From Nanobdellota archaeon (GTDB lineage: Archaea; Nanobdellota; Nanobdellia; Pacearchaeales; GW2011-AR1): a DNA stretch of 64,000 nt. This document shows, piece after piece, positions 31,287 through 64,000 of the stretch. The first letter of the stretch is position 1. Every line of letters begins with the position of its first letter. Both the position numbers and the translations under genes were made by a program. Under the pieces are notes generated by a model, which worked only from the letters and a program-made list of their open reading frames with translations, had not been told where the DNA came from and ran no database searches. The stretch spans positions 576 to 64,575 of the forward strand of contig JAGQJT010000004.1 in the NCBI GenBank assembly GCA_020430505.1, read 5' to 3'.

Positions 31287-31288
31287 AG

Positions 31289-33222: not shown

Positions 33223-33256
33223 AAACCTATTTAAATGAGTTTAATTCTCTTTCTTT

Positions 33257-34063
33257 ATGAAAGTTTCGGGTTTAATTGCCAATTACAATGGAGGAAAAAA
33301 AGTAGTAAAATCTGTAAAATTATGTTTAGAGTATTGTGATGAGGTAATTTTTGTTGATGATAAAAGTAATGATGGTAGTTATGAAAAAGTAAAAAAAATA
33401 AAAAATGAAAAGTTAAAAATCTTTAGAAATAAAATAAATTCGGGAGCATCTTACTCGAGAAATATTTGTGCAAAAAAGGCCTCCTTTCAAAACCTTCTTT
33501 TTGTAGATAATGATTGCTATTTTGACAAAAAAAACTTCAAAAAGATTTTAGGGTTTAAAGAAGACATAATCTATCCAAGAATAATTGACACTACTCAAAA
33601 TATATATAATCACATTCCCGGAAGATACCTACAAAATTCAGTTTGCTTTTTTATTTCTAAAAAAAACTTCAAAAAAGTAAAGGGTTTTGACGAAAAGATA
33701 AGAATTTACATGGACGATGTAGATTTCTTTTTTAGATGTTGGAAAATGGGTCTTAAGATAAAATACATAGAAGACTCTAAAGGATTTCATGACTCTAAAA
33801 AGAGTAAAGAGACCATCTCCAATAATTTTTTTAAAAATTTGGAAAACACAGTTTATTTTTGTTTAAAACACAAAAGATTTGGGATTTCAAAAGAAGAATT
33901 CCCAAATACCTTAACCATATTAGCAAACTTAAGGAGATCTATTTTAAATAAGGACCGACTATATGGTATGGAGTTATCTGAGAAGAAAATAAATTCTTTT
34001 TTAAAGGCAATAAAATCTATTGTTAATGGTGCGAGATACTATCTTAAAACAAGGAACCAATAA
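33257..34063 (+). CDS. glycosyltransferase family 2
   Basis: VIFVDDKSNDGS...GASYSRNICA...FVDNDC. Confidence 0.8.
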   Translation: MKVSGLIANYNGGKKVVKSVKLCLEYCDEVIFVDDKSNDGSYEKVKKIKNEKLKIFRNKINSGASYSRNICAKKASFQNLLFVDNDCYFDKKNFKKILGFKEDIIYPRIIDTTQNIYNHIPGRYLQNSVCFFISKKNFKKVKGFDEKIRIYMDDVDFFFRCWKMGLKIKYIEDSKGFHDSKKSKETISNNFFKNLENTVYFCLKHKRFGISKEEFPNTLTILANLRRSILNKDRLYGMELSEKKINSFLKAIKSIVNGARYYLKTRNQ

Positions 34064-50074: not shown

Positions 50075-50556
50075 TGGAAAAAACAGAACAAGAAAAAACA
50101 GATAACAAGAAGTATGATGATAGAGTAGTTAGAATTCTATCTAAAGACATAGAAGGTAAAATGAAGATTTACCCTGGATTGACAAAGGTAAAAGGAATAT
50201 CCTGGTCTTTCTCCAACTCAATTTGTATTGCATTAAAATTAGACAAGAATAGAAAAATTGGTTCTTTAACTGAAAGTGAAGTTAAAAAAATAGAAGATTT
50301 TGCAAAAAACCCTTCTACTTCAAAACATCTATTGAATAGAAGAAAAGACTTTACTTCTGGAGAAGACAAACATTTAATTGGAAGTGACCTTGAATTAACT
50401 CATGAATTTGATATTAAAAGATTAAAAAAAATAAAAACTTATAGAGGACTTAGACATACTGCAAACTTGCCTTCCAGAGGACAAAGAACTAAATCCAATT
50501 TCAGAAAGAACAGAAGAAAAGGTTCTGGGATAAAGAAAAAAACTGTAAAGAAATAA
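50074..50556 (+). CDS. rps13: 30S ribosomal protein uS13
   Basis: IKTYRGLRHTANLPSRGQRTKSN. Confidence 0.9.
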   Translation: MEKTEQEKTDNKKYDDRVVRILSKDIEGKMKIYPGLTKVKGISWSFSNSICIALKLDKNRKIGSLTESEVKKIEDFAKNPSTSKHLLNRRKDFTSGEDKHLIGSDLELTHEFDIKRLKKIKTYRGLRHTANLPSRGQRTKSNFRKNRRKGSGIKKKTVKK

Positions 50557-50557
50557 A

Positions 50558-51058
50558 ATGAAAAGAAAACATAAACAATACTCTCGACCAAAAAGACCTT
50601 TTGATAAAGTTAGAATTGATGAAGAAGCCCAGATAAAAAAAGAATTTGGTCTGAAAAATAAAAAAGAAATTTGGAAGGCTGAAGCAAGAATAAAATCAAT
50701 GAGAGAAAAGGCAAAAAAATTAATCTCTTCTTCTGCAGAGGAACAAAAAGCACTTTTTGACAGATTACAAAAAATTGGATTAAATGTGAACAGCATTGGA
50801 GAAGTTTTGTCGTTGGATAAAAAAGATTATCTAAACAGAAGATTGCAGACAATTCTTGTAAAAAAAGAATTGGCCACAACACCAAAATCTGCAAGACAAT
50901 TAATTGTACATCAAAAGGTATTGGTTGATGGAAAAATCCTTGATAGCCCTTCTTATATTGTTCCTGTAGAGATGGAGAACAAGATAACTCTAAAACCGAG
51001 CAAACTTAAAAAAACTAAAGAAAACCCAATAAAAGAAGGAGAAAGCGAAAATGCCTAA
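50558..51058 (+). CDS. rps4: 30S ribosomal protein uS4
   Basis: KQYSRPKRPFDKVRIDEE...; S4 domain near the C-terminus. Confidence 0.9.
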   Translation: MKRKHKQYSRPKRPFDKVRIDEEAQIKKEFGLKNKKEIWKAEARIKSMREKAKKLISSSAEEQKALFDRLQKIGLNVNSIGEVLSLDKKDYLNRRLQTILVKKELATTPKSARQLIVHQKVLVDGKILDSPSYIVPVEMENKITLKPSKLKKTKENPIKEGESENA

Positions 51059-51524
51059 GAAGAAAATTGAAGAACCCAAAGAAGAACAAGAAGTAGAAGA
51101 GGAAACTCAAGAAAAAGGAAATAATGAAGAAGGAAAGATTTCTCATGTTAAGGAAGCTGAAGCAATTTTGAATATTTATACATCGTTTAATAATACAATA
51201 GCACATGTCACAGATATGTCTGGAAGAACTCTTACTAAAGTTACAGGAGGAATGGTTACCAAACACAATCGTTTGAAAGCAAACCCCACTGTCGCAATGT
51301 TCATTGCTAAAAGAATTTCTGAATCTGTTAAAGACATGGGAGTTAAATCATTTTACATAAGAATAAGAACAAAAACAAGAAATCCTGCGCCAGGCCCTGG
51401 AGCAAGTGCAATTGTTAAGAGTTTGACAAGAGAAGGATTTAAAATTTTGAACATTCTTGATTCATCAAGAATTCCTAGAGGAGGTCCAAAGAAAAAGGGA
51501 GGACGTAGAGGAAGAAGGCCTTAG
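51051..51524 (+). CDS. rps11: 30S ribosomal protein uS11 with a ~35 aa acidic N-terminal extension
   Basis: NIYTSFNNTIAHVTDMSG...PGPGASAIVKSL. Confidence 0.9.
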   Translation: MPKKKIEEPKEEQEVEEETQEKGNNEEGKISHVKEAEAILNIYTSFNNTIAHVTDMSGRTLTKVTGGMVTKHNRLKANPTVAMFIAKRISESVKDMGVKSFYIRIRTKTRNPAPGPGASAIVKSLTREGFKILNILDSSRIPRGGPKKKGGRRGRRP

Positions 51525-51531
51525 GGCAAGG

Positions 51532-51539
51532 TTTATATA
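51532..51539 (+). promoter_or_regulatory. TATA-like box (tttatata), 21 nt before the rpoD ATG
   Basis: Spacing rule. Confidence 0.4.
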
Positions 51540-51560
51540 ACCTATTAAAAAGATAATAAA

Positions 51561-52274
51561 ATGCAATCAATAAATAAAACAGATAACAAATTAACCTTTT
51601 CAGCAAAAATTAGTGAAAGTTTAGCTAACGCTTTGAGAAGAAGCGTTAATTCAATTCCAACTTTGGCAATAGATGAAGTTGAAATCTCAAAGAATGATTC
51701 TCCTCTTTATGATGAGACTGTTGCACACAGAATGGGACTAATTCCTTTGAAGATGCAAAAGTCGTTTAAAGAAAAAGATGAAGCTGTTCTAAAATTGAAA
51801 ACAAATAAACCTGGAACAGTTTATTCCAAAGATTTTAAAGGCGATATCGAGGTAGTCTATGGAGAGATCCCAATTACCGTTTTAGGAGATGACACTGAGA
51901 TTAATGTCAAAGCAATCGTAAGACTCGGAAAAGGAAGTGAACATGCTAAGTTTTCTCCAGGGTTGATTTATTACAGAAATGCTTCTGAAATCACAATGGA
52001 TAAAGAATTTTTTAATAAAGTGAGGGAAACTTTTCCTGAGAATGAAGTCAAGGAAAAAGGAGATAAGATAATCATTGAGGATAATCTAGAAAAACCAATG
52101 GTTGATTTTTGCGAGGGATTAGCATTAAGAAATAAGAAAAAAGTTGAAGTCAAAGACACAGATGAGTTGATCATTAGTGTAGAAGGCTTTGGGCAAATGA
52201 AAGCTAAAGATATGTTTAAAGAATCATTAAAAATATTAAAGAAAGACCTAAATGATTTTGCAAAAAAAATATAA
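51561..52274 (+). CDS. rpoD: DNA-directed RNA polymerase subunit D (Rpo3)
   Basis: LANALRRSVNSIPTLAIDEVEISKNDSPLYDETVAHRMGLIPL. Confidence 0.85.
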   Translation: MQSINKTDNKLTFSAKISESLANALRRSVNSIPTLAIDEVEISKNDSPLYDETVAHRMGLIPLKMQKSFKEKDEAVLKLKTNKPGTVYSKDFKGDIEVVYGEIPITVLGDDTEINVKAIVRLGKGSEHAKFSPGLIYYRNASEITMDKEFFNKVRETFPENEVKEKGDKIIIEDNLEKPMVDFCEGLALRNKKKVEVKDTDELIISVEGFGQMKAKDMFKESLKILKKDLNDFAKKI

Positions 52275-52277
52275 AAC

Positions 52278-52288
52278 TTTTTTTTTTT
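52278..52288 (+). terminator. oligo-T tract (11 T), archaeal-type terminator after rpoD
   Basis: taaaacttttttttttt begins 4 nt after the stop codon. Confidence 0.5.
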
Positions 52289-52326
52289 AGTTTAGAGTAC
52301 TGTATATATTTAACAGTTGGTGAAAC

Positions 52327-52368
52327 AAAAAAAATATCCTCAACAAAAAGTTGAAGAGGATATTTTTT
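52327..52368 (-). terminator. intrinsic (hairpin plus U-run) terminator for the minus-strand gene ending at 52375; flanked by an A-run and a T-run, so potentially bidirectional
   Basis: aaaaaaa-ATATCCTCAAC-aaaaa-GTTGAAGAGGATAT-ttttt; 7 nt downstream of the stop. Confidence 0.7.
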
Positions 52369-52374
52369 GATTGT

Positions 52375-53268
52375 TTAATCTTTTTTCAAAATATAACATT
52401 TAATAGAATGGATTACTCCCTTATCAGTTTTGAAATAATTAGGGGGGCCCAAACGGAATCCCACAACTTCCTCTGTGAGAAGATTTTCAGGAATCTGGCT
52501 TATAATATGGGCATATGTTGGTTGAAAAATATCTGCCCCCCCTTCCCCAAATTCTTGGTAGATTTCGATAGATTCCTTTTCAACAAATTCCCCTTCTGCG
52601 GGAAAATCTGAATTAATCTTATGTAGATTTGAGCCGTTAATACGCAACCAAATTCCTATAGTGAGGTATGGCTTAGTTAAATCTCCAGGATCTATAAAGG
52701 CCAATCCTTTTTCATGCCAGTATATCGCAGGCCGGATTTTGTCTTTAAATTTTTCTGCCTTTTCCAAAGAAACTGGTTTAATCAAACCTTCAAAAACGGG
52801 AAGAATTTCTTTCTCAAGCTCCTCCGATTTCTCATAAAGGATTATTGGTAAAGATTGATACTCTCCCCTCATGATTACCTCAGCATCATTTTCTGGATCA
52901 AGTGAAAATGCCACAACTTTTTCAGCAATATCTTGGGGAATTTGGGCCATCACTTCTGCCATTGTCACTTTACAAAAACCGTAGTAGCCTCCAACCTTTA
53001 CATAAATATCCAGTTTTGAGAGAATTTTCAATCCTTCAGCCTTCTCTTGCCAAACAGCATCTTTATCAAAATTGAATGCTTCTTTACGAGGATTTGCATT
53101 AGAAAATTGGTAGAATAATTCAAAAAACCGGGGATCCTTTTCCATGGTATGATGAATTTTTCCATCTGTTCCTTTCATAGCATGATTCACAAATCTTATT
53201 CGATCCATCATCTCTTTGAGATGATTATCTGAAATTTTGGGAATTGGATTTTTTGTTTTTGTTTCCAT
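52375..53268 (-). CDS. hypothetical protein with an apparent internal duplication
   Basis: aaggag SD. The segments VTMAEVMAQIPQDIAEKVVAFSLDP and PTYAHIISQIPENLLTEEVVGFRLGP look like two copies of one module. Confidence 0.65.
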   Translation of the reverse strand: METKTKNPIPKISDNHLKEMMDRIRFVNHAMKGTDGKIHHTMEKDPRFFELFYQFSNANPRKEAFNFDKDAVWQEKAEGLKILSKLDIYVKVGGYYGFCKVTMAEVMAQIPQDIAEKVVAFSLDPENDAEVIMRGEYQSLPIILYEKSEELEKEILPVFEGLIKPVSLEKAEKFKDKIRPAIYWHEKGLAFIDPGDLTKPYLTIGIWLRINGSNLHKINSDFPAEGEFVEKESIEIYQEFGEGGADIFQPTYAHIISQIPENLLTEEVVGFRLGPPNYFKTDKGVIHSIKCYILKKD

Positions 53269-53307
53269 AATAAACTCCTTTCCATTTTTTAATTTTAGAA
53301 TTAAGTT

Positions 53308-53604
53308 TTAAGCAAGCTTTAGCTCTTCGCTAAGATTGGCCTTTAAAAAATTCTCAACCAATTCTTCATCAAGCTTATCGAATTTTATCTCTTTAAAGAG
53401 GTTTTCAAAAGAAGATTCTTCTTTTACCTCAAGAGGCTCATTTTCCATATGCTTCATTGCTTTATCCACCTCCACCCCAAAATAAAAACCTCCTCCCGGG
53501 CAGAATGCAAGAGCTTTCCTTTCATTTTCTTTTTCAAGAACTACAACCAATTGAGAGGCACATCCTCCTGTAGGAAGTTGTGCAAAATAAATTAGATTTT
53601 TCAT
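53308..53604 (-). CDS. hypothetical protein (98 aa) downstream of small membrane peptide P1
   Basis: Begins MKNL, like the gene after P2. No motif recognised. Confidence 0.55.
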   Translation of the reverse strand: MKNLIYFAQLPTGGCASQLVVVLEKENERKALAFCPGGGFYFGVEVDKAMKHMENEPLEVKEESSFENLFKEIKFDKLDEELVENFLKANLSEELKLA

Positions 53605-53682
53605 AACATTTTATTTTTAATTGTCAATAATTTAAAAAATTAATAAAAAAGCCAAAATAGCTAAAATTAAAGCTATTAGCTG
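53594..53682. repeat. ~90-nt repeat, copy 1 (about 88% identical to 57975..58064)
   Basis: Hand alignment. The repeat covers the 3' TM-coding part of the small peptide, the 27-28 nt spacer and the first four codons (MKNL) of the next gene. Confidence 0.85.
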
Positions 53683-53739
53683 TAAGTAAAATAGGGACTT
53701 TGAAAAAGTCTCTTTGGAATCCTTTTTGGATTCTTTCAT
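53632..53739 (-). CDS. small membrane peptide P1 (35 aa)
   Basis: Below the track threshold. My translation gives MKESKKDSKETFSKSLFYLQLIALILAILAFLLIF*. AGGAGG lies 5 nt upstream. Paralogue of P2. Confidence 0.6.
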   Translation of the reverse strand: MKESKKDSKETFSKSLFYLQLIALILAILAFLLIF

Positions 53740-53782
53740 AACAACCTCCTTTTTATTTTTTAAGTTTATAATTTATTTAATT

Positions 53783-55726
53783 TTAATAATATTCAACGAT
53801 TAATTTTGGTCTGTTAATAACTTCAGGATTATCGCTACTGAAGATTAAACAATAAGTGTCATTAGAGACCGTACTTAGAGCCAGACCATTATTTTGAGAA
53901 GGATCTAAAATCCAAGATTGAACTACTGAAGAAATATCAATCGAATACCAAGATTTAATCCCTTCAAAAGTAAATTCAAAAGAAGTGAAGTAATTTTCTG
54001 AAGAGGGAAAATTCTCTCCATTCACAGAATTCTCCTCCCATGGGGAAGTTACCTTTGAAATTCTTGCAATAGCAAGGTTAGGATAAGGCCCTAATCCAAA
54101 TCCATATAACTCCATTTTTGCAGAAACAATTGTTGAATTTTCTGGAATTTCATCAAGAGGAAATTGAATCAACATGCTTCTCCAACCCTCAGAACCTCCA
54201 GTAACATATTTTGAAATCTCCATTTCTTCTGTAGTTCCATCTCCATAATAAGTGGTATTCCCACTTACCCAATTTACCAATCCTGCAGAAGCGTCCTTTC
54301 CCTCTGGACCTGGTTGGAGGATAATGGAATTATTATTTGGAGTGACAATGTTCATTCCTCTTGTTTTCTCCCCAATTTTGCCGCTAGGATCTTTTGCTTG
54401 AACCTTAACGACATAATATGCCTTATTAGGAAAAGAATGTATCATGGTTTTTTCATAAACCCAATCAGTGTCCCAAACCCCATTATCCTCAAAGTCCCAT
54501 CTCACTTGACATTGGTCTTCTGGAACTTCATCCACAACAGCAGCTTTAAATGAGATTTCATTGCCCACATACCAAGGTTCAGGAGTATCTACTTGGATAA
54601 ACACTGTAGGAGGATTATTTGTTCCTCCTATCTGACCACTTAAAATTTGCTCATCGTAATTTATTAGATTATAATTTTTATCTGCAAGAGTTTTACTCAG
54701 GATTTTAATTTTTGCTCCTACTCCAATTTTTAATTTTCCATCGAGGTTCCAATTAATTGAACCCCCTGAACTTGAAGCATAAACCCCTAACCCTCCATCT
54801 GCATAAGCATATGGGCCTGCAACATCATAAAGAAATATATTGAATGCTGCACTTGCATAAGCTTCAAGAGAGAGGTTTGATTGCAAACTAGGATTAAATC
54901 CAGAAAAATCAAAATCCAACGATTTTATCATGTCCCACTTATTGTTTTCGTATTTTAATCCCCCTTGAAGTTCGAAGGATTGATTAACTTTTGAAGAACA
55001 GACTGAGATGCTTCCGTCTGCTTTTAGAACTACTTCTATAGAAGGAGTGATGTATAACGGAACTATTCCGATCGTTCCGGCAAGAAATCCTGGAAGATTT
55101 TGGCTCCAAATTATTTTTTCTTTATCTTGAAGATAAAATGAATCGTTTGCGCTTATTTGAAGCGAGGATTCTTCAGAAAGAATATTGATTATCAAAAACT
55201 TTTTTAGCTTCCATTTCTCTATATCAATTTCTCCATCAACAGAGTAATTGAAAAAAAATTGGCCATTTATAAAAACCCCATTTGAAATCTGGATATTATT
55301 GAAATTAAAACCAAAATCGAATCCTTTTTTCTCAATAAAGGTGACTCCTTCCGGGAGAGAAGATTTATACTTTTCTGAGGGTTTTATCTCTTTTGAAAAA
55401 GAAAGAGAACCATCTTTAACAACTTCTTCGATTGAAGCTTGTTGAGTGTGAATTTTTCCCCCAGAAACAGATTTTACTTTCTTAAGAAAGCCCATAGGAG
55501 TTGAAGAAGAAAATCCTGTAACAATAAAATCTCCAACAGATATTCCAGAAGTTCCGGATAATGAGATCGTTCCTTCGTCAGAATAAGACAAAACTTCTCC
55601 TGAAGAAATCTCAAATAATTCCTCACCAGAAGGTCCCACAGGAATTCCTTCCTTTTCAAAGGAATTTTCTTTTTTGCAACCAAAAAGGGCCACAAATGTT
55701 AATACGATTAAAACTAATTTTTTCAT
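53783..55726 (-). CDS. lipoprotein with a PKD domain and a C-terminal DNRLRE-type domain
   Basis: Lipobox LFGC. PKD-like VRWDFEDNGVWD. C-terminus: LIQFPLDEIPENSTIVSAKMELYG...VTSPWEENSVNGENFP...RPKLIVEYY. Confidence 0.75.
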   Translation of the reverse strand: MKKLVLIVLTFVALFGCKKENSFEKEGIPVGPSGEELFEISSGEVLSYSDEGTISLSGTSGISVGDFIVTGFSSSTPMGFLKKVKSVSGGKIHTQQASIEEVVKDGSLSFSKEIKPSEKYKSSLPEGVTFIEKKGFDFGFNFNNIQISNGVFINGQFFFNYSVDGEIDIEKWKLKKFLIINILSEESSLQISANDSFYLQDKEKIIWSQNLPGFLAGTIGIVPLYITPSIEVVLKADGSISVCSSKVNQSFELQGGLKYENNKWDMIKSLDFDFSGFNPSLQSNLSLEAYASAAFNIFLYDVAGPYAYADGGLGVYASSSGGSINWNLDGKLKIGVGAKIKILSKTLADKNYNLINYDEQILSGQIGGTNNPPTVFIQVDTPEPWYVGNEISFKAAVVDEVPEDQCQVRWDFEDNGVWDTDWVYEKTMIHSFPNKAYYVVKVQAKDPSGKIGEKTRGMNIVTPNNNSIILQPGPEGKDASAGLVNWVSGNTTYYGDGTTEEMEISKYVTGGSEGWRSMLIQFPLDEIPENSTIVSAKMELYGFGLGPYPNLAIARISKVTSPWEENSVNGENFPSSENYFTSFEFTFEGIKSWYSIDISSVVQSWILDPSQNNGLALSTVSNDTYCLIFSSDNPEVINRPKLIVEYY

Positions 55727-55752
55727 AGTAAATTTTATTTTTAATTAATAAT

Positions 55753-56445
55753 TTATTTTAGAACAAAACTAATTGGAATGTTATATTGCACCCTTACAGG
55801 TTTTCCTCTCTGCTTTCCGGGGCTCCACTTGGGCATTGCTTCTACAACTCTTATTGCTTCCTCGTCACACCCTCCTCCAATTCCTCTTAGTAATCTCACA
55901 TCTGTAACCGAACCATCTGTTTCAACTACAAAAGTTAAAAACACCCTTCCGGAAATATTTGCTTCTCTTGCGACCTTAGGATATTTTAGATTTTGAGCAA
56001 GGTATTCGTGAAGACCTTTTTCTCCTCCGGGAAACTCTGGCATTGATTCCACTACAATAAAAATTTGTGATTCTTCTTCAGTTTCTTCCTCTTCTTCAAA
56101 AATTTCTTCTTGAGGGATGTACTCCTGAATCACTGTATTTTGATCTGCTTCTACATTAATTTCCAAATCATCTTCAACTTCAAGATCATTACTTACGACA
56201 TCAATTCTAGTTGGTTGAGTGACTAGAGGAGGAGGGGGAGGTTTTGCCTCTTGCTCCGTGATAGGGATGAACTCTTCAGGAATATCTTCAGTTTGCACTA
56301 TGAAGATTTCTTTCTCTCCTGAATCATGGGATTTAATTTCAAGTCCTCTCCAGATTAAAAAAAGGACAATGATTAATCCAATCTCAAAGAAAACTGGTTT
56401 CCACCGTTCGAGATCTGCTTTTTTAGATTTTCTTTTGTCTTTCAT
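55753..56445 (-). CDS. tonB: energy transducer TonB-family protein
   Basis: N-terminal TM segment, PPPPP linker, acidic region. C-terminal domain: MPEFPGGEKGLHEYLAQNLKYPKVAREANISGRVFLTFVVETDGSVTDVRLLRGIGGGCDEEAIRVVEAMPKWSPGKQRGKPVRV. Confidence 0.85.
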   Translation of the reverse strand: MKDKRKSKKADLERWKPVFFEIGLIIVLFLIWRGLEIKSHDSGEKEIFIVQTEDIPEEFIPITEQEAKPPPPPLVTQPTRIDVVSNDLEVEDDLEINVEADQNTVIQEYIPQEEIFEEEEETEEESQIFIVVESMPEFPGGEKGLHEYLAQNLKYPKVAREANISGRVFLTFVVETDGSVTDVRLLRGIGGGCDEEAIRVVEAMPKWSPGKQRGKPVRVQYNIPISFVLK

Positions 56446-56493
56446 TGTTTTAATTTTTAAAGTTATTAAAATTTAATTTATTTCATAATAATA

Positions 56494-57120
56494 TCAAATC
56501 CATTTTTTCAAAGGAATTTTTTTATTCAACCTATATATGACCAAGGGAAGCCAAACAGGTATACAACCTAAAAACATATACGAAGGAAGAAGAGAATATT
56601 CTAGATTCCAATTTGGAATCACCAAAAGCATAAGGCCATAACCCAATCCAAAAACAAACCATAAATAAGGCCTATCTGTATGGGGTTTGATCCAAGCATT
56701 TCTTATGGCGGGAATCAAACCAAAAAAATTGGCAACTAGAGATAAAACCAAAACCCATTTTGATCTTTCTGGATCTTCAAGGAATACCAACCAGGAAATT
56801 AAAGCTCCGATTGAAAGAGTGCCGCATAGATAATCCCAAAAAGAGACTTTTCTATTTTTTGATTTTAATAAAACCAATAGCATTATAGTTGTTGAACCAA
56901 TTAGTCCTGCAAAAGGCGCCAAAAGATTCAAACCCAACCCTCCAGAGGAATAAGAAGAAAAAAGAATTACAAAAGAACTTAGGGAAAAAATTACCCAAGT
57001 CACAATTGGAAGTTCGATCTCTTTCAAATTGGAGAGAGTTCTAATTGAAGGGACATATGCAATGAAGATTGTCAAAAAGGAAATCATTGCAAGCTCTAAA
57101 CCGCTATCAAATTTTTCCAT
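56494..57120 (-). CDS. integral membrane protein (about 6 TM), unknown family
   Basis: Hydrophobicity pattern only. Confidence 0.55.
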   Translation of the reverse strand: MEKFDSGLELAMISFLTIFIAYVPSIRTLSNLKEIELPIVTWVIFSLSSFVILFSSYSSGGLGLNLLAPFAGLIGSTTIMLLVLLKSKNRKVSFWDYLCGTLSIGALISWLVFLEDPERSKWVLVLSLVANFFGLIPAIRNAWIKPHTDRPYLWFVFGLGYGLMLLVIPNWNLEYSLLPSYMFLGCIPVWLPLVIYRLNKKIPLKKWI

Positions 57121-57161
57121 AACATTTTATTTTAGTTTATAATTATGTGAATTTCAAATTG

Positions 57162-57238
57162 CTCCCTTGACAGGATTCGAACCTGCGACCTCCAGCTAAT
57201 CAATGATACTGGGCTCTAACCAACTGTGCTACAAGGGA
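57162..57238 (-). tRNA. tRNA-like gene B1 with a non-canonical anticodon arm (4-5 bp stem, 11-13 nt loop)
   Basis: Reverse complement: TCCCTTG TA GCAC AGTTGGTTA GAGC C CAGT-ATCATTGATTA-GCTG G AGGTC GCAGG TTCGAAT CCTGT CAAGGGA G. The acceptor helix is extendable to 9 bp. Confidence 0.5.
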
Positions 57239-57267
57239 GCCTCCTACCTGCAGGATAATGAAAGATT

Positions 57268-57456
57268 TTATGCTGATGTTATTTCATCGGCCACACTAAA
57301 GTTTTTTTTGAAATACTCTTCCTTTAGCATTCCCACTCCTAAGTCTGCAACATTTTTGGCAATATGGGAATTACCTCCACTTTTTACAGATGCGACATAA
57401 ACCTTTTTCCAGAATTTCCGAATTTCTTTATCGGACAAAGTTTTTTTGATTGACAT
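57268..57456 (-). CDS. hypothetical small protein (62 aa)
   Basis: aaaggag SD; MSIKKTLSDKEIRKFWKK... Confidence 0.5.
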   Translation of the reverse strand: MSIKKTLSDKEIRKFWKKVYVASVKSGGNSHIAKNVADLGVGMLKEEYFKKNFSVADEITSA

Positions 57457-57487
57457 ATTAAACTCCTTTCTATTTTTTAGTTTATAA

Positions 57488-57985
57488 TTAATTTATTTCA
57501 GGCAGATCGTCCTGGTTTTTATGAGGTCTCAAATGACGCACTTCTTTTGTTTCAGGAGAAATTCTGAAAACCAGAAAGTTATTGTTATTTGATTTAATTA
57601 CCATAAAAGATTTAGGATGCGATTTCGATGGACCAGTGAGACCTTTTACCTTACCAAAAAATTCGATTGGATCAGCTCCAATTAAACGATAAACTTTTTC
57701 TTGCTCAAAGAACCTAATGTCTGTTCCGTAAGCACATTTTTCTTCAGAGAATTTTTCAAAGACATTTTCAAAAAAATCTTCAAAATTTTCCGTTGCGACA
57801 AAAGTTACATTTCTCCATAGAACGTCTTTTAATTTTTCTAAAGAAGAACAAACTCCATATAAACCCATTAAATTTCTCAAGGATTCTTTGGTTTTTTCTT
57901 CGATTAAAGAATCAAAACCCAAGAGGGTCTTTCCCTTAAGTAATTCAAAAAGGTCTTCTAAACTGATTAACTCAAGATTTTTCAT
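57488..57985 (-). CDS. DLPEI-tail family protein, paralogue C
   Basis: Shares three elements with 62739..63218: the N-terminus (LEDLFELLKGKTL), the core EKVYRLIGADPIEFFGKVKG, and the C-terminal KNQDDLPEIN. Confidence 0.65.
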   Translation of the reverse strand: MKNLELISLEDLFELLKGKTLLGFDSLIEEKTKESLRNLMGLYGVCSSLEKLKDVLWRNVTFVATENFEDFFENVFEKFSEEKCAYGTDIRFFEQEKVYRLIGADPIEFFGKVKGLTGPSKSHPKSFMVIKSNNNNFLVFRISPETKEVRHLRPHKNQDDLPEIN

Positions 57986-58064
57986 AACATTTTTTATTTT
58001 AATTGTTAATAATTTAGGAAATTAAGAAAAAAGCTAAGATAGCTAAAATTAAAGTTATTAGCTG
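57975..58064. repeat. ~90-nt repeat, copy 2 (see 53594..53682)
   Basis: Hand alignment. Confidence 0.85.
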
Positions 58065-58133
58065 AATTAAGAAAAGCGCTTTAGAAAATCCTGAAGAATC
58101 TTCAGCTTCATTTTTTGAATTTTTTGTTTTCAT
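58014..58133 (-). CDS. small membrane peptide P2 (39 aa)
   Basis: MKTKNSKNEAEDSSGFSKALFLIQLITLILAILAFFLIS*. The track ORF 58014..58244 extends spuriously into the tRNA-like gene. Confidence 0.55.
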   Translation of the reverse strand: MKTKNSKNEAEDSSGFSKALFLIQLITLILAILAFFLIS

Positions 58134-58174
58134 TTTTTTAAATTTTGAATTAATTATTAAATAAGAATCAATTG

Positions 58175-58258
58175 CTCCCTTGGCAGGATTCGAACCTGCG
58201 ACCTCTTTCTTGGAAATCAGTGAAAAAAGAAAGCACTCTACCACTGAGCTATAAGGGA
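58175..58258 (-). tRNA. tRNA-like gene B2 with an expanded anticodon arm (5-7 bp stem, 15-19 nt loop; contains a canonical Gly-UCC loop TTTCCAA preceded by 12 extra nt)
   Basis: Reverse complement: TCCCTTA TA GCTC AGTGGTA GAGT G CTTTC-TTTTTTCACTGA-TTTCCAA-GAAAG AGGTC GCAGG TTCGAAT CCTGC CAAGGGA G. Confidence 0.5.
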
Positions 58259-58308
58259 ACCTCTTTTAATTTAAAAGAAATTTAAATAATCCTAATTAAA
58301 GGTTGGAT

Positions 58309-59988
58309 TTACTTGATTAAAATTTTCTGGCTTTTTCCAGAATTTTTATCAATAACCAAGTAAATTTCTGAATTTAGAGTTTGGTCTTCACGGATTTCTT
58401 TTATATTTTGATATATTTTTCCGTTCACGACCTGTCCCATTAAATTCAATAATTGAAATTTTCCAGAAGACAATTCCTGCATGTCCATTTCATCGGTTAT
58501 AATCTCTGAAGATTTAGAGTTATCTTCAAAAATTATTCTGAAACGAACAGGATTGTCTAAAGGAGTATGAGAAAAAGAGTAATCAGAAGCGGTTAAATAA
58601 TGATATGAATGTGTTTTCGTATCAAACAGTTTCACATCGAAATCTCCATCAATTTCATTTTCCCAAATACTTATTTCAGAAGTTCCGGAGAAATCACAAG
58701 CCAACCCTAATGTTGCCATTGTACCATCAGAATAATCATCAAGAGTATTTATTAGCATATTCTGACTAGCATCGCAGATATAAACCTCGCTTAAAGTTTC
58801 TGAGGGTAACCATGGAACATCTGCTTGCAGATCATACCCGAACGTAACTAATGCGTGATTATAAAATCGAAACATTACTTCATTTGAGTAGGGGTTTGTT
58901 TCATCTCCCCAATTCACTTTAAAAGAGATATAATCTCCATCGGTAGGAGATTCTAGAACTCCTTTCAAAATCCCTGATGAGATAATATCTTGTCCGACTT
59001 TCCAATAAAAATCGCTTCCAAAATACTTAGCGGAATTATTAACTCCCAGAGAAGAAGAAGTTGAGCCGGCTTGGCCAATAAAAGCTTGCCTTACTGCAAT
59101 GTACCTATCCGCCGTCCCTTCTGCAGGAAAAATAAAGAAAGGAGATTTATGATAGACATACGCCCCAAGATTAGAGTTATTTGGATCTCCATTCCAAACA
59201 AAATAAGTTGTTGATGTGGAATTCTTGGTCCATCCTCCTGATGCATCCCAATCAAGAGTAGTGGGGTAAGGATTTCCCATTAGGTTCCAGCCTTCATCTT
59301 GATAGGAGAGAGTTCCTGAAGAATAACTTCCGGTTTTGAACAATCCAGAAACAGTTATCTCTGAAGGACTTTTTGTTGCATCACCAGAATAACTAGAACC
59401 TTTAACTTTCTCTTTTCCTTCCAAAAATTCAGGTAAATCTGAAGAAGAATTTGAAAAAACAGCAAAACCTTCAAAACTTCCCAGGGGGTAATTTGGATTT
59501 GTCAAATATTCCCAAGAATTGGTAGGTTCATCAAAAGTTTTTACATACATTCCTGAAAAAATCCCCAATAGTTGATTTTCTACAGGAACAATTATGAACT
59601 CCCACTGGTCCTGATCAAAAGCAATTTTATAAGTGCCATACGCTCCAGTTCCATTGTAAAAGAAAAAGGCTCCTGATTCTAAAACAAGTCTTTCAGGATC
59701 ATCTCCTTCGGAAAAAGTGCCATCAACCTTTAAACCAATTCCTGATTGAACTGTTAAAACAGCTCCAGAATTTATCGTGAGGTTATTAAGCGTAACATCG
59801 CTGCTGTTTATCACAGGATCATTTGTTACATTTGGTATTACCACATTGGCTCCTGAAGATGGAACAGAATTTGTGTTCCAATTTGAGGCAGTATGCCAAT
59901 CAGTACTTGTTGATCCGTCCCAAGTTTGTGCGACGGAAATTGCTGTTATTAAAAACAGCGCCGAAATTAAACTAATAAGTTGTTTCAT
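58309..59988 (-). CDS. secreted protein with a T9SS-type C-terminal sorting tail
   Basis: Signal peptide ...ITAISVAQ. N-terminus TWDGSTSTDWHTASNW. C-terminus ...LLNLMGQVVNGKIY...EIYLVIDKNSGKSQKILIK. Confidence 0.65.
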   Translation of the reverse strand: MKQLISLISALFLITAISVAQTWDGSTSTDWHTASNWNTNSVPSSGANVVIPNVTNDPVINSSDVTLNNLTINSGAVLTVQSGIGLKVDGTFSEGDDPERLVLESGAFFFYNGTGAYGTYKIAFDQDQWEFIIVPVENQLLGIFSGMYVKTFDEPTNSWEYLTNPNYPLGSFEGFAVFSNSSSDLPEFLEGKEKVKGSSYSGDATKSPSEITVSGLFKTGSYSSGTLSYQDEGWNLMGNPYPTTLDWDASGGWTKNSTSTTYFVWNGDPNNSNLGAYVYHKSPFFIFPAEGTADRYIAVRQAFIGQAGSTSSSLGVNNSAKYFGSDFYWKVGQDIISSGILKGVLESPTDGDYISFKVNWGDETNPYSNEVMFRFYNHALVTFGYDLQADVPWLPSETLSEVYICDASQNMLINTLDDYSDGTMATLGLACDFSGTSEISIWENEIDGDFDVKLFDTKTHSYHYLTASDYSFSHTPLDNPVRFRIIFEDNSKSSEIITDEMDMQELSSGKFQLLNLMGQVVNGKIYQNIKEIREDQTLNSEIYLVIDKNSGKSQKILIK

Positions 59989-60052
59989 GAATTTAAAATT
60001 TTTTAATTTAACAAAAGTTTTTTACAGAACAGCTACTTTTTGAAAGATGCTA

Positions 60053-60214
60053 CTAATCAAGTCCCCTAAACTTGTGTACACATCTCCAACCTAGCGAAGG
60101 TTGGATTTTTTCTGCTTTAATATTGAATAAAACCTTCTCTGAAGAAAAATTCACAAGAAGATTTACTTTAATAAAAAAGCAGAAAAATAAAATGATAACT
60201 AAAATAAAAAACAT
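60053..60214 (-). CDS. possible 53-aa membrane peptide (doubtful)
   Basis: My translation gives MFFILVIILFFCFFIKVNLLVNFSSEK... Weak SD, and it contains a strong hairpin. Confidence 0.2.
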   Translation of the reverse strand: MFFILVIILFFCFFIKVNLLVNFSSEKVLFNIKAEKIQPSLGWRCVHKFRGLD

Positions 60215-60245
60215 TGTTTTACCTTTTTAGTTTGTAATTAATTTA

Positions 60246-60794
60246 TTAGTTAATTGGCTTGAATTTTAGGTCTTTTGGGGAGTTGAGAATTAGCAATAAC
60301 TTGTCCACAAGAGCATAAACATTTTTTTCAAATAAAGGAAGTTTTTCTTTTTCATATTTCAAAAGAAAATACCCATTGTAAATGTTCATCCCATTTTGTA
60401 TGAAAGAACTTCTTGTCAGATCAGCGGAAAAATTAATGCAGCTATCAGTCTTGTCACCTAAAACAAGATGTTTCATAGAGACCTCCCAAACAGTTGCCTC
60501 CAAATAAACAGAATCTTTTATGGTGTATTGAATCTCAAAAGACCTTCCATGAGCATCTTCAAAATCCAACTTTTTCTGAAAGTCTGTACCAGCATAGATT
60601 TTTGCATACCCTATTCTTTCTGCTAATTTAACTAGTTCAATTATCTTCCAATTGGGAGAATCAGCCTTAATCTCATCAAAAGAAAAATCCCTTAATTTAG
60701 AAACTTCTTTTGGAGTTTCTTTTTTTAGAAAATCTTGAAAAAGAAAAGCTGAACAAAGTAGTATAGAAAAAATCAAAAAAATTCTTTTTTCCAC
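60246..60794 (-). CDS. secreted or lipoprotein, unknown function
   Basis: GTG start with aaaggag SD; signal LIFSILLCSAF. Confidence 0.6.
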   Translation of the reverse strand: MEKRIFLIFSILLCSAFLFQDFLKKETPKEVSKLRDFSFDEIKADSPNWKIIELVKLAERIGYAKIYAGTDFQKKLDFEDAHGRSFEIQYTIKDSVYLEATVWEVSMKHLVLGDKTDSCINFSADLTRSSFIQNGMNIYNGYFLLKYEKEKLPLFEKNVYALVDKLLLILNSPKDLKFKPIN

Positions 60795-60816
60795 AATAAA
60801 CTCCTTTCTATTTTAA

Positions 60817-60863
60817 GTTAGAAAATAAATTAATTTATTGAATTTCCGGAAGATCTTCTTGGT
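60817..60863. repeat. 47-nt exact repeat, copy 1 (identical to 62721..62767)
   Basis: gttagaaaataaattaatttattgaatttccggaagatcttcttggt. Spans the C-terminal EDLPEIQ codons, the stop and the palindrome AATAAATTAATTTATT. Confidence 0.95.
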
Positions 60864-61329
60864 CTTTCGAAAGTTCTAAGCATGAAAAATAATCCTCGTC
60901 TCCAGAATTAAAAATAAGAGAACCTCCTCTTGTTAATAAAACAAGATGGTGTTCCCAAAAACTAAACCCACAGCCACATTCCGAAATTACTTCTCTTGTG
61001 TTAATGTATCCTAAAACCTTTCCGGAAAAAATAATGGGATCTCCTTCGGAAAAACGATAAACTTTTCCTTGTTCAATTTCAAAAGAATAGAGTTCTTGAG
61101 CACATCCAACTCCTTCTCCTTCAAGAACATTTTTTCTAATCTCCTCTTCTGAAGAAGTAGCAAAAAAGATCCCTTCTTCTTTCAATGCGCGAATGAGCGC
61201 AACTTTTAGACCAGAATCTTCTGAAAGAGTGGTTGGAGAAAAAGGGTATCCCGAACTTCCACCAAGTAGAATTTTTCATTCGCAAAGTTTTAGAACTTCA
61301 TCAAAGGATAATTTTTTTAAATGATTCAT
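60835..61329 (-). pseudogene. DLPEI-tail family paralogue B, interrupted by an in-frame TGA (61276..61278)
   Basis: From ATG 61329 (aaaggag SD): MNHLKKLSFDEVLKLCE*KILLGGSSG...ALIRALKEEGIFF... continues in frame into track ORF 60835..61185. Ends KDQEDLPEIQ. Confidence 0.6.
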
Positions 61330-61432
61330 AACAAACTCCTTTATTTATTAAGTGAGAAAATTTTTTGAATTAAAAAAGAACAGCTTCGCCGAAATTCATT
61401 GAAGCTGTTCATAAAAAAGGAATGGTTAATTA

Positions 61433-62701
61433 TTAGAAAGGACGTCTTTTACTGAGAAGAAAATCAAAGAGCATTCTGCCAAGACCTCCAGACCCTGCAA
61501 ATGCTTGTATAGAAGACCCTTCATCTTCTCCCACAGAAAGATTACAGACTTTTCCAATTTCCTTATTGCAGCTTCCCCAGAGAGTCATTTTTCCTGAACG
61601 GCCTTCATACTTTGGAGCAGCACCAATGATTTCCAATACAGCACCAGGACAATAAGGATGCTCCACTTTTTCGCCAGGTTTTCCTCCGAGAGATTCGCAA
61701 AGCACAGTGTTGGGATCGACATAAAAATGGTTGTCCTGAGCAAAAACTTTCACTCCTCCATTCTCCTTCAGCTTTTCCTGCAGAGCATCAGATTCAGATT
61801 TTAAAGTGAAGAAATCTCCAAGATTTTGATTTTTATTATAATCGTCGGAAAGATCTTGAACTTCGAGATTGCCTGGCTTTTGGAACCACAAACAATCAAA
61901 ACCGGAAGTCACTTCTGAAGGTCCGACTCCTTTGACCACATAAACTCCTCCTGGTCCATAAACTTCTTCTCCGGCTTTGAAACCAAATGATTCACAAGCT
62001 TCATCAGAGGGGTCTAAGAAAAAGGGATGTCCACTAACAGAGATAGCAGGAACTCCTCCATTGTTTTCCAATTCTTCCTGCTTTGCTTTAATCTCTCCCA
62101 CAATCCGGAATCCTTGTTCGACAAGGTTCAACTTATCTACATCAGAGGAGTATAAACCTATCTTCCCAGACTCGGTCTCAAGAAACAAAATTTCTGGTCC
62201 AACAAGCAAGTCCTCTCCGGTAGTTTTATGCCTTGCAGGAATAGGTCCGACACCCAAAACAAGGGATTCAATTCCTCCTTTTTCGATTTTTGTGCCCGCT
62301 TTGAAACCAAACTTCAGGCAAGTTTCATCGAAAACATCCACATAAACAACTTGTCCGTCGGGCATTTCAATTTTACGCCCTCCATTTTCCGCAAGTTCTT
62401 TTTGCTTAGCTTCGAGTTCCCCCACTCTCCGAAATCCGACTTCTCTCAAATTAACATCTTTAGGCTTACTGGAATACCTTACGACATCTCCTGATTCATT
62501 TTTGAACCAAACCACATCATGGTCTCCAATATGTTCTCCAGTAGAATTACAAGGTGCGACTCCGATAACGGTACACTTCGTGCCGTATGGATCAATAAGT
62601 TCCTCATCAGGTTTTACTCCCAATTTTGCACATGCTTCCTCAGAAACATTTACAGTGATTTCATGACCACTTTTTACGATTACTTTTTTTGTTTTTTCCA
62701 T
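61433..62701 (-). CDS. protein made of four tandem ~100-108 aa repeats, unknown function
   Basis: Each repeat ends in ENGG/NNGG and contains V(D/N)x(S/F)DExCxxFGFKAG...V.GVGP.... Confidence 0.7.
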   Translation of the reverse strand: MEKTKKVIVKSGHEITVNVSEEACAKLGVKPDEELIDPYGTKCTVIGVAPCNSTGEHIGDHDVVWFKNESGDVVRYSSKPKDVNLREVGFRRVGELEAKQKELAENGGRKIEMPDGQVVYVDVFDETCLKFGFKAGTKIEKGGIESLVLGVGPIPARHKTTGEDLLVGPEILFLETESGKIGLYSSDVDKLNLVEQGFRIVGEIKAKQEELENNGGVPAISVSGHPFFLDPSDEACESFGFKAGEEVYGPGGVYVVKGVGPSEVTSGFDCLWFQKPGNLEVQDLSDDYNKNQNLGDFFTLKSESDALQEKLKENGGVKVFAQDNHFYVDPNTVLCESLGGKPGEKVEHPYCPGAVLEIIGAAPKYEGRSGKMTLWGSCNKEIGKVCNLSVGEDEGSSIQAFAGSGGLGRMLFDFLLSKRRPF

Positions 62702-62720
62702 AATAAATTTAAAATTTTAG

Positions 62721-62767
62721 GTTAGAAAATAAATTAATTTATTGAATTTCCGGAAGATCTTCTTGGT
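62721..62767. repeat. 47-nt exact repeat, copy 2
   Basis: See 60817..60863. Confidence 0.95.
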
Positions 62768-63218
62768 TTTCGGAAAGCCCAATACGCGATAAACTTTCTT
62801 GATAAATCTGGGTAAAGAAAAGATCTCCATTTAAGCATTTTAATACAACAAATGAATTGCCCTTCTCTATTTGATAAATTCCTTCAACCTTTGCTGAGAA
62901 AACCAAAGGGTCTCCTTGGATGAAACGATAAATTTCTCCTTGTTCAAGAATTGCCAGAGGAGAAATGCCTACACAACTTCCTTCATAAACCTCTTCAATT
63001 ACCTGCGCAAGAAAACTATCTTCATTTGATATAAAAACAGAATTTGAATTTATAGAAATTTCTTCCTCAAAAAAGGAATAAGTGTGAGGAATAGTGCACA
63101 TCTGATTAGATAAATCTTCTTTTGAGACTAGATAAGAAAAAATATCAAAATCGTATAGTTCCTTTCCTTTGATCATTTCCAAAATTTCTCTTTTGGAAAT
63201 CTTTCTAAAACCTTGCAT
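62739..63218 (-). CDS. DLPEI-tail family protein, paralogue A
   Basis: aaaggag SD; ...REILEMIKGKELY..., GEIYRFIQGDPLVFSAKVEG, C-terminal ENQEDLPEIQ. Confidence 0.65.
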   Translation of the reverse strand: MQGFRKISKREILEMIKGKELYDFDIFSYLVSKEDLSNQMCTIPHTYSFFEEEISINSNSVFISNEDSFLAQVIEEVYEGSCVGISPLAILEQGEIYRFIQGDPLVFSAKVEGIYQIEKGNSFVVLKCLNGDLFFTQIYQESLSRIGLSENQEDLPEIQ

Positions 63219-63253
63219 ATTGAACTCCTTTCTATTTTAATTAATAATTAATT

Positions 63254-63451
63254 TTATTTTTTCTTTTTGAAAAGTCTAATTTTCGCTTTATCGGCCATCA
63301 AAGATTTATCTCCTTTTTGGACCACACCTTTGCGAATACATTTGTCTGCTTTGTGATCTCCTGGAAGAGTCGGAGCTTTTCTTGTAAAAGAACAGGAAGA
63401 AAGGAAAACGCTCAAAAGAGCAATGAACAAAAATTTTACGATTGTTTTCAT
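63254..63451 (-). CDS. small lipoprotein (65 aa)
   Basis: MKTIVKFLFIALLSVFLSSC lipobox; basic tail. Confidence 0.55.
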   Translation of the reverse strand: MKTIVKFLFIALLSVFLSSCSFTRKAPTLPGDHKADKCIRKGVVQKGDKSLMADKAKIRLFKKKK

Positions 63452-63529
63452 TTTTAAAAAATTTAGTTAAACAATTTATTTAATTAAAGGATATATTTTG
63501 ATTTCAATTTAATTGAACTATTATTTTCT

Positions 63530-63601
63530 AAGCAAAAATAGCAGGCCTCCAAATAAATGACTTTAATCAAAGTGTTTGATTACTTGTCTTGGAGACCTGC
63601 T
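63530..63601 (-). terminator. long compound hairpin followed by a U-run on the minus strand (terminator or attenuator-like)
   Basis: AGCAGGCCTCCAA (63540-52) pairs with TTGGAGACCTGCT (63589-601), 12/13 bp. Inner hairpin AATCAAA-gtg-TTTGATT. The minus strand continues CTATTTTTG. Confidence 0.45.
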
Positions 63602-63902
63602 TAATTAAAAGGATTATTTTACAGGATCTGAAATCCTGTGCATAAAAACTAAGAAATTTTTCATTGTGTTTTAATTAAACTTCAACTTTGATTAGACTAG
63701 TTTTTTAGGTCACTTGGACCAAACTCAGCCTAAACATCTTAAACGAATTCCTCGATGTATCATATGCTTCGGTATTTTGGAGATCAATGAGTTTTTTATT
63801 TATCTCAAAGAACTCCAATTAAAAGATTTTTCAAATTTTTCATTTTTGTTTCTCCTGTAATTTATTTGTTAATAATTTTATTTAATTTCAAAATTCAATT
63901 TG

Positions 63903-64000
63903 TCAAACACTCAACAAAGGATTTGCATAATTTGAAGAGAAATTGAAGAATACCTCTTCCATGAGTTCTTCAAGTTTCTCAGCCGGATAACGGGAAGTTG
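63903..64000 (-). CDS. 3' end of an unidentified CDS entering from beyond the window
   Basis: My translation gives ...TSRYPAEKLEELMEEVFFNFSSNYANPLLSV*. Too short to classify. Confidence 0.3.
   Translation of the reverse strand, partial: TSRYPAEKLEELMEEVFFNFSSNYANPLLSV

Follow-up and report, generated by a model that had tools for sequence, protein, structure and literature searches.

Does the chromosome of a DPANN archaeon really pass, within 100 nt, from its ribosomal protein and RNA polymerase genes into genes of bacterial outer-membrane type, or have two unrelated contigs been joined? This question is raised by a 64,000-nt stretch of contig C26 of the source genome, G000 (G000:C26:576-64575; the whole stretch is called the window below), in which the RNA polymerase gene rpoD is followed, at about 52.3 kb, by opposite-strand genes that include tonB. 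The initial annotation, made from the sequence of the window, had preferred the concatenation of two contigs or a chimeric assembly, with a real island of outer-membrane genes as the fallback. The evidence given below leads to the conclusion that the junction at 52275-52374 is genuine and not an assembly error. It is very probably the native rpoD-side edge of a hypervariable island of approximately 18.5 kb in the DPANN chromosome, in which envelope genes have been collected across domains.

The source organism is a Pacearchaeota/Woesearchaeota-type DPANN archaeon with a genome of about 0.75 Mb (assembly of 745 kb in 31 contigs; completeness 89.8%, contamination 0.06%). Left of 52.3 kb, the plus strand carries archaeal genes, as initially described: L21e, an Rpb4-like subunit, DUF655, S13, S4, S11 and Rpo3/RpoD. 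The S13-S4-S11-RpoD cluster is indeed cut short, L18e-L13-S9 lying on contig C6 and not after rpoD, and from 52375 to the window end every sizeable open reading frame (ORF) lies on the minus strand. Given the archaeal plus-strand genes on the left and the minus-strand ORFs with TonB_C and DNRLRE domains on the right, the switch of strand and gene content at 52.3 kb is real. The features at the junction are the following.

51561..52274, plus strand: rpoD/Rpo3, 237 aa (PF01000 and PF01193), last gene of the S13-S4-S11-RpoD cluster and conserved left flank of the island

52256..52272, plus strand: 17-nt motif TTTTGCAAAAAAAATAT, the last codons of rpoD

52278..52288, plus strand: T11 run, read directly in the sequence, the archaeal-type oligo-T terminator of rpoD that had been annotated at this place

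52327..52368, no strand assigned: A-run, hairpin ATATCCTC...GAGGATAT and T-run, bidirectional and terminator-like, between convergent genes (terminator scan)

52375..53268, minus strand: first island gene, 297 aa, no signal peptide (AlphaFold2 (AF2) model mostly beta, pLDDT 91, pTM 0.83)

52375..64000, minus strand: the in-window part of the island, which reaches further, over the rest of C26 (as far as window-equivalent 68541) and C6:1-2300

An assembly artefact, in which an archaeal contig was joined at about 52.3 kb to one from a low-GC Bacteroidota or related bacterium, would account for the abrupt change of strand and gene content and for the truncated ribosomal protein/RNA polymerase cluster. 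The 61-66% identity of the TonB to Bacteroidales proteins fits such a join, metagenome-assembled genomes are prone to chimeras, and the bin does hold obvious stray contigs: C19, C20 and C21, about 600 bp each, have a GC content of 0.67-0.70 against approximately 0.31 for the genome and are probably contaminants. However, no Ns were found at the join in the G000 sequence, and an identical junction is present in three other assemblies. The exact 297-aa protein on the island side of the junction is also encoded on the ENA contigs ERZ27309112 (6,251 bp) and ERZ28655193 (5,845 bp) and on the Logan contig SRR6747756 (4,577 bp). These contigs match window positions 50106-56356, 50522-56366 and 51780-56356 with 100, 99.98 and 100% identity, respectively, and each joins S13/S4/S11/rpoD to most of the TonB gene.

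The arrangement is also kept in another lineage. In three assemblies of a different but related lineage (L030-L032), rpoD-S11-S4-S13 stands tail-to-tail with the gene of P0140, the closest homologue of the 297-aa protein (59% identity). The rpoD of this lineage is 58% identical to that of G000, and the island-adjoining orthologues of the congeners (G001-G004) and L030 together span 58-66% identity. As in G000, the spacer at this junction consists of an A-run, a hairpin of the form ATATCC(Y)C...G(R)GGATAT and a T-run. The same hairpin element, with a variable loop, was found in G001, G002, G004, L030 and L042, and the boundary of G003 has another stem sequence in an unchanged architecture; within G000, this hairpin form occurs at the rpoD boundary only. 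We interpret it as a terminator or insulator that works in both directions and separates the rpoD operon from the convergent island. The spacer is homologous to that of the relatives over all of its 100 nt, so that the break that had been placed within 52289-52326 is not borne out.

Islands at the same site were found in six other genomes. In all four congeners, rpoD is followed by an opposite-strand block of small signal-peptide protein genes. In G003 (222-kb contig) and G001 (51-kb contig), this block spans 6-10 kb and is followed on the same contig by a gene pair (148-165 aa and 665-672 aa), tRNA-Leu(CAA) and L18e-L13-S9. The arrangement is the same in G411 (208-kb contig) and G221 (359-kb contig), which represent two further genera, and in all metagenome loci with enough flank. 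Both archaeal flanks thus lie on single contigs of 51-359 kb in G001, G003, G411 and G221. In G006, which has no island, rpoD stands directly before tRNA-Leu and then L18e.

The flank missing from C26 was found on C6. C26 overlaps at its end with the start of C6 by 12 nt, which makes them one of only three such contig pairs in the assembly, and C6 carries six more small minus-strand ORFs, a 639-aa and 152-aa pair, tRNA-Leu(CAA), L18e, L13, S9, a recombinase fragment and XerA, in this order. Because of this overlap and of the expected flank on C6, the island is taken to run from window position 52375 to about C6:2300, approximately 18.5 kb, with archaeal flanks on both sides. Its part on C26 beyond the window holds a 219-aa barrel gene and a third tRNA-like gene. 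The far flank begins with the following pair.

G000:C6:2313-4697 (L015): conserved pair of 639 aa and 152 aa that flanks every island; the larger protein, a HerA/DUF87 ATPase, weakly resembles CedD (a DNA-import/translocating ATPase) and HerA

The family of the 639-aa ATPase is present in 10 of the 101 genera of the archaeal family, and the ATPase was not found in the island-free G006. With 59-65% identity, the ATPase is conserved like rpoD and behaves as flank, not as cargo; a link between it and gene uptake is speculation. An all-against-all comparison of five islands yielded only 3-4 shared families, and gene sharing with the L030 island is mosaic. The island splits an ancestral rpoD - tRNA-Leu(CAA) - L18e-L13-S9 order at a site that is fixed across at least three genera, while its content seems to be reshuffled between species from a shared pool. 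Turnover probably proceeds by homologous recombination through the conserved flanks together with piecemeal gene gain. The interval from rpoD to tRNA-Leu can serve as a marker locus for strain-level variation and host linkage in metagenomes.

Composition gave no sign of a join. The GC content is about 0.32-0.34 on both sides of the junction, the tetranucleotide distances of island chunks include no outlier, and codon usage of the island is only mildly atypical: it lies at a distance of 0.49 from the genome, where control blocks lie at 0.30 ± 0.10 and 3.3% of them reach 0.49, and GC3 (GC content at third codon positions) is 0.276 against 0.232. The tetranucleotide and codon comparison that the initial annotation had suggested thus revealed no compositional break. 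Its appeal to Shine-Dalgarno sequences as a bacterial signal was overstated. GGAG-type sequences precede 4 of 20 island ORFs, against 7.8% genome-wide, which does not discriminate, and most island starts follow A/T-rich leaders. The hairpins with U-runs that had been noted are confirmed (27 hairpin plus T-run sites in 46-64 kb, against 13.5 ± 3.9 in shuffles of this segment). Counts of sigma-70-like promoters were not above those of shuffles.

The repeats of the island tie tonB to its surroundings. Intergenic cassettes of families D1, D3, D4, D5, D7 and D9 are repeated between 53.2 and 63.3 kb on both sides of tonB, which argues that tonB belongs to the architecture of the island; cassettes D1, D3, D5 and D6 are shared over this interval. 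None of the island sequences recurs elsewhere in G000 at the DNA or protein level, and there are island genes with homologues only in the islands of related archaea. Collectively, the reproduction of the junction in three other assemblies, the conservation of the gene pair and hairpin in another lineage, the same-site islands of relatives and the missing flank on C6 lead to the conclusion that the junction is real. The contig concatenation or chimera preferred at the outset is refuted by the 99.98-100% identical junctions, the conserved pair with its hairpin and the same-site islands, and an artefact of any such kind is now very improbable. A join that looks chimeric is therefore genuine here, and automated decontamination of DPANN bins would wrongly remove it.

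If the island is real, its cargo could still have arrived as one unit, in a provirus or plasmid integrated site-specifically at the 3' end of rpoD or at tRNA-Leu. The single gene direction, the majority of genes without known relatives, the adjoining tRNA-Leu(CAA), the tRNA-like genes carried inside, and the HerA/FtsK-type ATPase with weak CedD similarity and its small partner gene at the far end would all suit such an element. A tRNA-like gene with the same acceptor stem occurs on one viral contig, and in an uncultured phage record of 735 kb (LR756501.1, 735,411 bp; positions 470226-470483) there is a TonB_C domain that matches residues 144-229 of the island protein with 66% identity. The rpoD end itself is repetitive. 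An exact copy of TTTTGCAAAAAAAATAT lies at or just after the rpoD stop in the congeners, L042 and G411, and in relatives one to three further copies follow in the next 100 nt or so, the last of them forming the 5' arm of the boundary hairpin. Repeats of TTTTGCAAAAAAAATAT stand at equivalent places in L011, L012, L013, L042 and L050, and G004 has a tandem repeat of about 31 nt. These repeats may mark recurrent recombination at the island edge.

The other end of the island does not match this picture. It has no attachment-type repeat, no copy of TTTTGCAAAAAAAATAT was found there, and tRNA-Leu has no partial copy. No integrase lies within the island, and the nearby tyrosine recombinase is a XerA equivalog located beyond L18e-L13-S9. 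Matches to PHROGs were obtained for 0 of the 10 proteins tested, no phage DNA match was found, and the 297-aa protein and a 208-aa island membrane protein have no phage match. The ATPase is conserved as flank and not as cargo, and the islands differ gene by gene between species. A single site-specifically integrated element was therefore rejected for want of an internal integrase, flanking attachment repeats and viral hallmark genes, and we regard it as improbable.

The short genes in one direction, the repeated palindromic intergenic cassettes and a Xer/integron-type tyrosine recombinase less than 5 kb away also recall an integron-like cassette array, which would explain gene capture across domains. 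Most spacers, however, are 17-50 nt long and A/T-rich, with neither an attC-like structure nor a GTTRRRY core. The recombinase scores 243 bits as XerA (cut-off 220) against 214 bits with the integron integrase model (cut-off 265), and core genes separate it from the array. With spacers too short and lacking attC, and with a XerA equivalog as the recombinase, an integron was rejected and has next to no likelihood. We thus return to a hypervariable island with a native rpoD-side edge, the cargo of which is considered below.

Evidence for transfer across domains is clearest for tonB.

55753..56445, minus strand: TonB, 230 aa, with N-terminal membrane anchor, Pro-rich spacer and TonB_C (PF03544, TIGR01352)

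The TonB C-terminal domain reported initially was confirmed by PF03544 (E=4e-21, 75.8 bits, cut-off 24.6) and TIGR01352 (45.1 bits, cut-off 27.1). Over its full length, the island protein is collinear with TonB proteins of 226-227 aa, with 61-66% identity, and the named ones among them are from Bacteroidales. The C-terminal domain is nearly invariant between the island and Bacteroidales proteins, and the membrane-anchor segment is the most diverged. Judged by its sequence, TonB is clearly of Bacteroidales origin. One Bacteroidales-type homologue adjoins SprA and GcvH in a genome with a GC content of 49%; its GC3 is 0.62, against 0.26 for the island gene, which reflects either drift of the island tonB towards the composition of its host or a low-GC donor. 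The island TonB is thus like its Bacteroidales counterparts in full-length collinearity, identity and domain scores, and differs from them in its GC3, in its diverged anchor and in its setting, an archaeon where neither ExbB nor TonB-dependent receptors were found.

TonB_C is rare in the class (4 of 401 genomes). In G411, a 500-aa ORF that ends in TonB_C lies among archaeal-looking genes (L026:9210-10712, on G411:C7), another acquisition of this domain in the same family. One of the four genomes is the related archaeal bin G189. Its contig C3 (L025, 17 kb, GC content 0.37) consists entirely of Bacteroidota-looking lipoprotein and signal-peptide genes and includes a toxin-antitoxin pair, an amylase-like gene and two matches to TonB_C. 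This contig was left out of the evidence, since it is wholly bacterial-looking, has no archaeal marker and may be a binning contaminant.

A second component of outer-membrane type is the 219-aa protein encoded on C26 beyond the window. Its AF2 model is a 12-stranded transmembrane barrel (pLDDT 79.7, pTM 0.69), and all PDB matches obtained with this model in Foldseek are bacterial outer-membrane barrels, KdgM being the best (TM 0.64), followed by NanC. The family recurs in the islands of G001, G003, G411 and G221 and of several metagenome lineages. In its homologues, the signal peptide is of the ...AQ type and the last residues are YNF (L019) or YSF (G411), which resembles a bacterial barrel-insertion signal. 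None of 40 family members has a Pfam match, and the family profile found no match in the PDB. Distant homologues (P0196-P0315) are about 25% identical. Among the 401 genomes of the class, only family f1 gave confident matches (4 of 77, G000 among them); a marginal match from another family (E=3e-4) contains an in-frame stop. The protein is, as far as the model allows, a lineage-restricted gene product of bacterial outer-membrane type that is KdgM/NanC-like. The predicted 12-stranded barrel, the similar size (TM 0.53-0.64), the signal peptide and the aromatic end of the homologues are shared with the KdgM/NanC porins (PDB 4pr7, 4fqe, 2wjq); differences are the lack of a Pfam or PDB sequence match, the confinement of confident matches to f1 and a genome in which Omp85/BamA was not found. 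In the G003 island, a different protein scores above the Pfam threshold of OMP_b-brl (PF13505).

Two larger island proteins carry a lipobox or a signal peptide.

53783..55726, minus strand: 647-aa lipobox protein (MKKLVLIVLTFVALFGC) with PKD and DNRLRE/CBM96 domains (NF033679, E=2e-23)

58309..59988, minus strand: 559-aa secreted protein with a signal peptide ending in ...SVAQ, full-length homologues 24-28% identical

The DNRLRE domain noted at first inspection is thus present, together with CBM96 and PKD, and so are lipobox lipoproteins, with N-termini LFGC, LSSC and FSSC. A 759-aa lipoprotein homologous to the 647-aa protein adjoins the beta-barrel gene in the G411 island. The initial annotation had also listed a C-terminal tail like that of type IX secretion system (T9SS) cargo. 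In the 559-aa protein itself, no match to the T9SS sorting domain (PF18962/TIGR04183) was obtained even at E<=10; what stands of the claim is that the full-length homologues carry PF18962, the named matches being Bacteroidales and Pedobacter. The tail looks degenerate, and by sequence comparison the gene was probably acquired from Bacteroidota.

The 297-aa protein has a different distribution. It has no structural or sequence relative in the PDB, and its more distant homologues stand in the context of bacteria of the candidate phyla radiation (CPR; Minisyncoccia). The family thus occurs in both very small bacteria and very small archaea. One homologue with 49% identity lies on a 43-kb contig (L033, ERZ27315896) in a CPR-like context with topoisomerase I, DprA, SerRS and RuvB.

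Overall, the content of the island is mixed and consists mostly of secreted, lipid-anchored or membrane proteins, of which only some genes are demonstrably from Bacteroidota. These were gained across domains and appear to have drifted to host composition since. The initial claim of bacterial content to the right of the junction therefore holds for TonB and probably for the homologue of T9SS cargo, and fails for the island as a whole, which is a mixture. Likewise, the fallback of a real island of outer-membrane genes in a DPANN genome is supported, except that it is not one recent bacterial block and its composition is host-like.

Flexible genomic islands occupy a fixed site and carry cell-surface genes, as in O-antigen or S-layer glycosylation replacement islands. 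The G000 island is of this known kind: it shares the fixed site between core genes, content specific to each relative, surface or secreted products, an adjoining tRNA and perhaps a mildly atypical codon usage. It differs in its DPANN host with a genome of about 0.75 Mb, in splitting a ribosomal protein/RNA polymerase cluster, in a cargo of outer-membrane type (TonB, porin-like barrels and lipobox proteins) without the matching machinery and in its own aberrant tRNA-like genes. What is unusual is the cross-domain cargo of outer-membrane type.

The machinery that such a cargo would require was sought in G000. ExbB (PF01618) and TonB-dependent receptors (PF00593) were not found (ExbD, PF02472, was not searched), and neither were LspA (signal peptidase II) and Omp85/BamA. 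As none of these components turned up, the island proteins probably do not serve the envelope of the archaeon itself. A fixed hotspot in several Pacearchaeota-type genera thus gathers bacterial outer-membrane-type proteins, the usual machinery of which was not found in the genome. The island products probably act at the cell surface, and they would most likely serve to contact or exploit a two-membrane bacterial partner at its outer membrane.

A more specific proposal, which we advance tentatively and consider unlikely as it stands, is that the island is the host-contact toolkit of an archaeal episymbiont living on a two-membrane bacterium, probably one of the Bacteroidota. The archaeon would export TonB, lipoproteins, porin-like barrels and a former T9SS cargo protein resembling an adhesin, all of which would act on or in the outer membrane and periplasm of the partner. 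Insertion of the barrels could be left to the barrel assembly (BAM) machinery of the host, and the TonB domain could bind host receptors at their TonB boxes. Capture of envelope genes from the host might renew the set, perhaps with the help of the neighbouring DNA-translocating ATPase that resembles CedD and HerA. The idea of a bacterial host can be examined on three candidates: TonB, the DNRLRE lipoprotein and the family of 12-stranded barrels.

All cultivated DPANN archaea are reported to require direct contact with an archaeal host (PMC11291902). If the proposal were true, the toolkit would be evidence, at the level of the genome, that a DPANN archaeon can live in symbiosis with a bacterium, a pairing that is not reported among cultivated DPANN. 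Some Pacearchaeota/Woesearchaeota have been proposed as episymbionts of bacteria, and bacterial gene transfer into DPANN has been reported (Castelle et al. 2021, PMC8204110). In the available text of that paper, the proposal of bacterial hosts rests only on murein-degrading proteins, and murein transglycosylase-like proteins, chaperones and metabolic pathways are treated. The present case is alike in that bacterial-type genes occur in Pacearchaeota/Woesearchaeota and extracellular proteins are read as host-contact tools; it differs in its cargo and setting, as the same text does not include TonB and no passage on outer-membrane barrels or a fixed rpoD island was found in it. Full-text searches of the literature on DPANN genomic islands or DPANN beta-barrels found nothing equivalent.

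Several points weigh against the interpretation of a native island with an envelope role. Support for the junction is at the level of assemblies and comparative genomics, not of reads, and the three corroborating assemblies probably share reads with the sample of G000, so that they are independent as assemblies and not as samples. TonB was found in 0 of 40 relatives and, without conservation in the genus, may be a neutral passenger; the barrel copy of G000 ends in RINNK, with no terminal aromatic residue. Since G000 is 89.8% complete, a component not found there is not proven to be absent. Finally, other assemblies from this population all break at window position 56356 and at about 58130, and L058, which covers 56344-58161, begins with 57 nt of different sequence and has six mismatches.

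The last point concerns the internal order of the island. L059 covers window positions 56356-58129 and L055 covers 58131-68473. Given these breaks, the order of the three island segments rests on the G000 assembly, on the TonB frame, which is unbroken across 56356 and whose first 30 residues align with Bacteroidales TonB, and on a 31-nt overlap between L058 and L055 at 58131-58161. The breaks look like branch points of the assembly graph caused by strain variants or repeats, which suggests alternative island structures at the strain level.

The tRNA-like genes form a family confined to the islands.

57162..57238, minus strand: tRNA-like gene 1, with a U1-A72 acceptor stem and an 11-nt anticodon loop with CAU (Rfam tRNA model, 42.8 bits)

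58175..58258, minus strand: tRNA-like gene 2, with the acceptor stem and T arm of gene 1 and a 15-19-nt anticodon loop (Rfam tRNA model, 53.3 bits; its repeat D10 is 97% identical to gene 1)

C26:67663-67735, beyond the window: third tRNA-like gene

L010:7389-7461, L011:5799-5872 and L013:11924-11997: tRNA-like genes in the islands of relatives

The three genes of G000 share the acceptor stem UCCCUUR...YAAGGGA-G-CAA, unlike all other tRNAs of this genome, and the stem and 3' tail are shared with the tRNA-like genes in the islands of G002, G003 and G004. The family is characterized by U1-A72, G73, a 'CAA' trailer and anticodon loops of 6, 7, 11 or 15-19 nt, and its anticodons duplicate ones covered by normal tRNAs (Lys-UUU, Met-CAU). 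The AT-rich stems described for these genes at the outset are thus real: both genes in the window have an AU-rich U1-A72 acceptor stem and an oversized anticodon loop. The same stem and 3' tail (TCCCTTG...CAAGGGAGCAA) recur on a viral contig of 74 kb (IMG/VR IMGVR_UViG_3300011727_000029; L035:140-260), in a tRNA-like sequence that contains a long insert and was not called as a tRNA by ARAGORN.

The remaining genes of the island within the window are the following.

53308..53739, minus strand: 98-aa ORF and 35-aa one-helix membrane peptide (repeat families D4 and D9), a module duplicated at 57975-58133

56494..57120, minus strand: 208-aa polytopic membrane protein, 36% identical to a G001 island gene, with only a weak DUF6962 match

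57488..57985, minus strand: 165-aa member of an island-confined family (repeat family D2) with paralogues at 60835-61185 and 62739-63218; BLASTP identity among the three is 30-38%

60246..63451, minus strand: five genes (ORF calls) of 182 aa (signal peptide), 116 aa, 422 aa (four repeats), 159 aa and 65 aa (lipobox)

The 98-aa and 35-aa genes were also called in the independent assemblies, and the 422-aa four-repeat protein is 35% identical to the product of a 426-aa gene in the L030 island. Elsewhere in G000, the strongest tetranucleotide outliers are C28:5001-25000 and window positions of about 29400-34400 (C26:30001-35000), the latter with the lowest GC content (0.27-0.28); both may be further islands.

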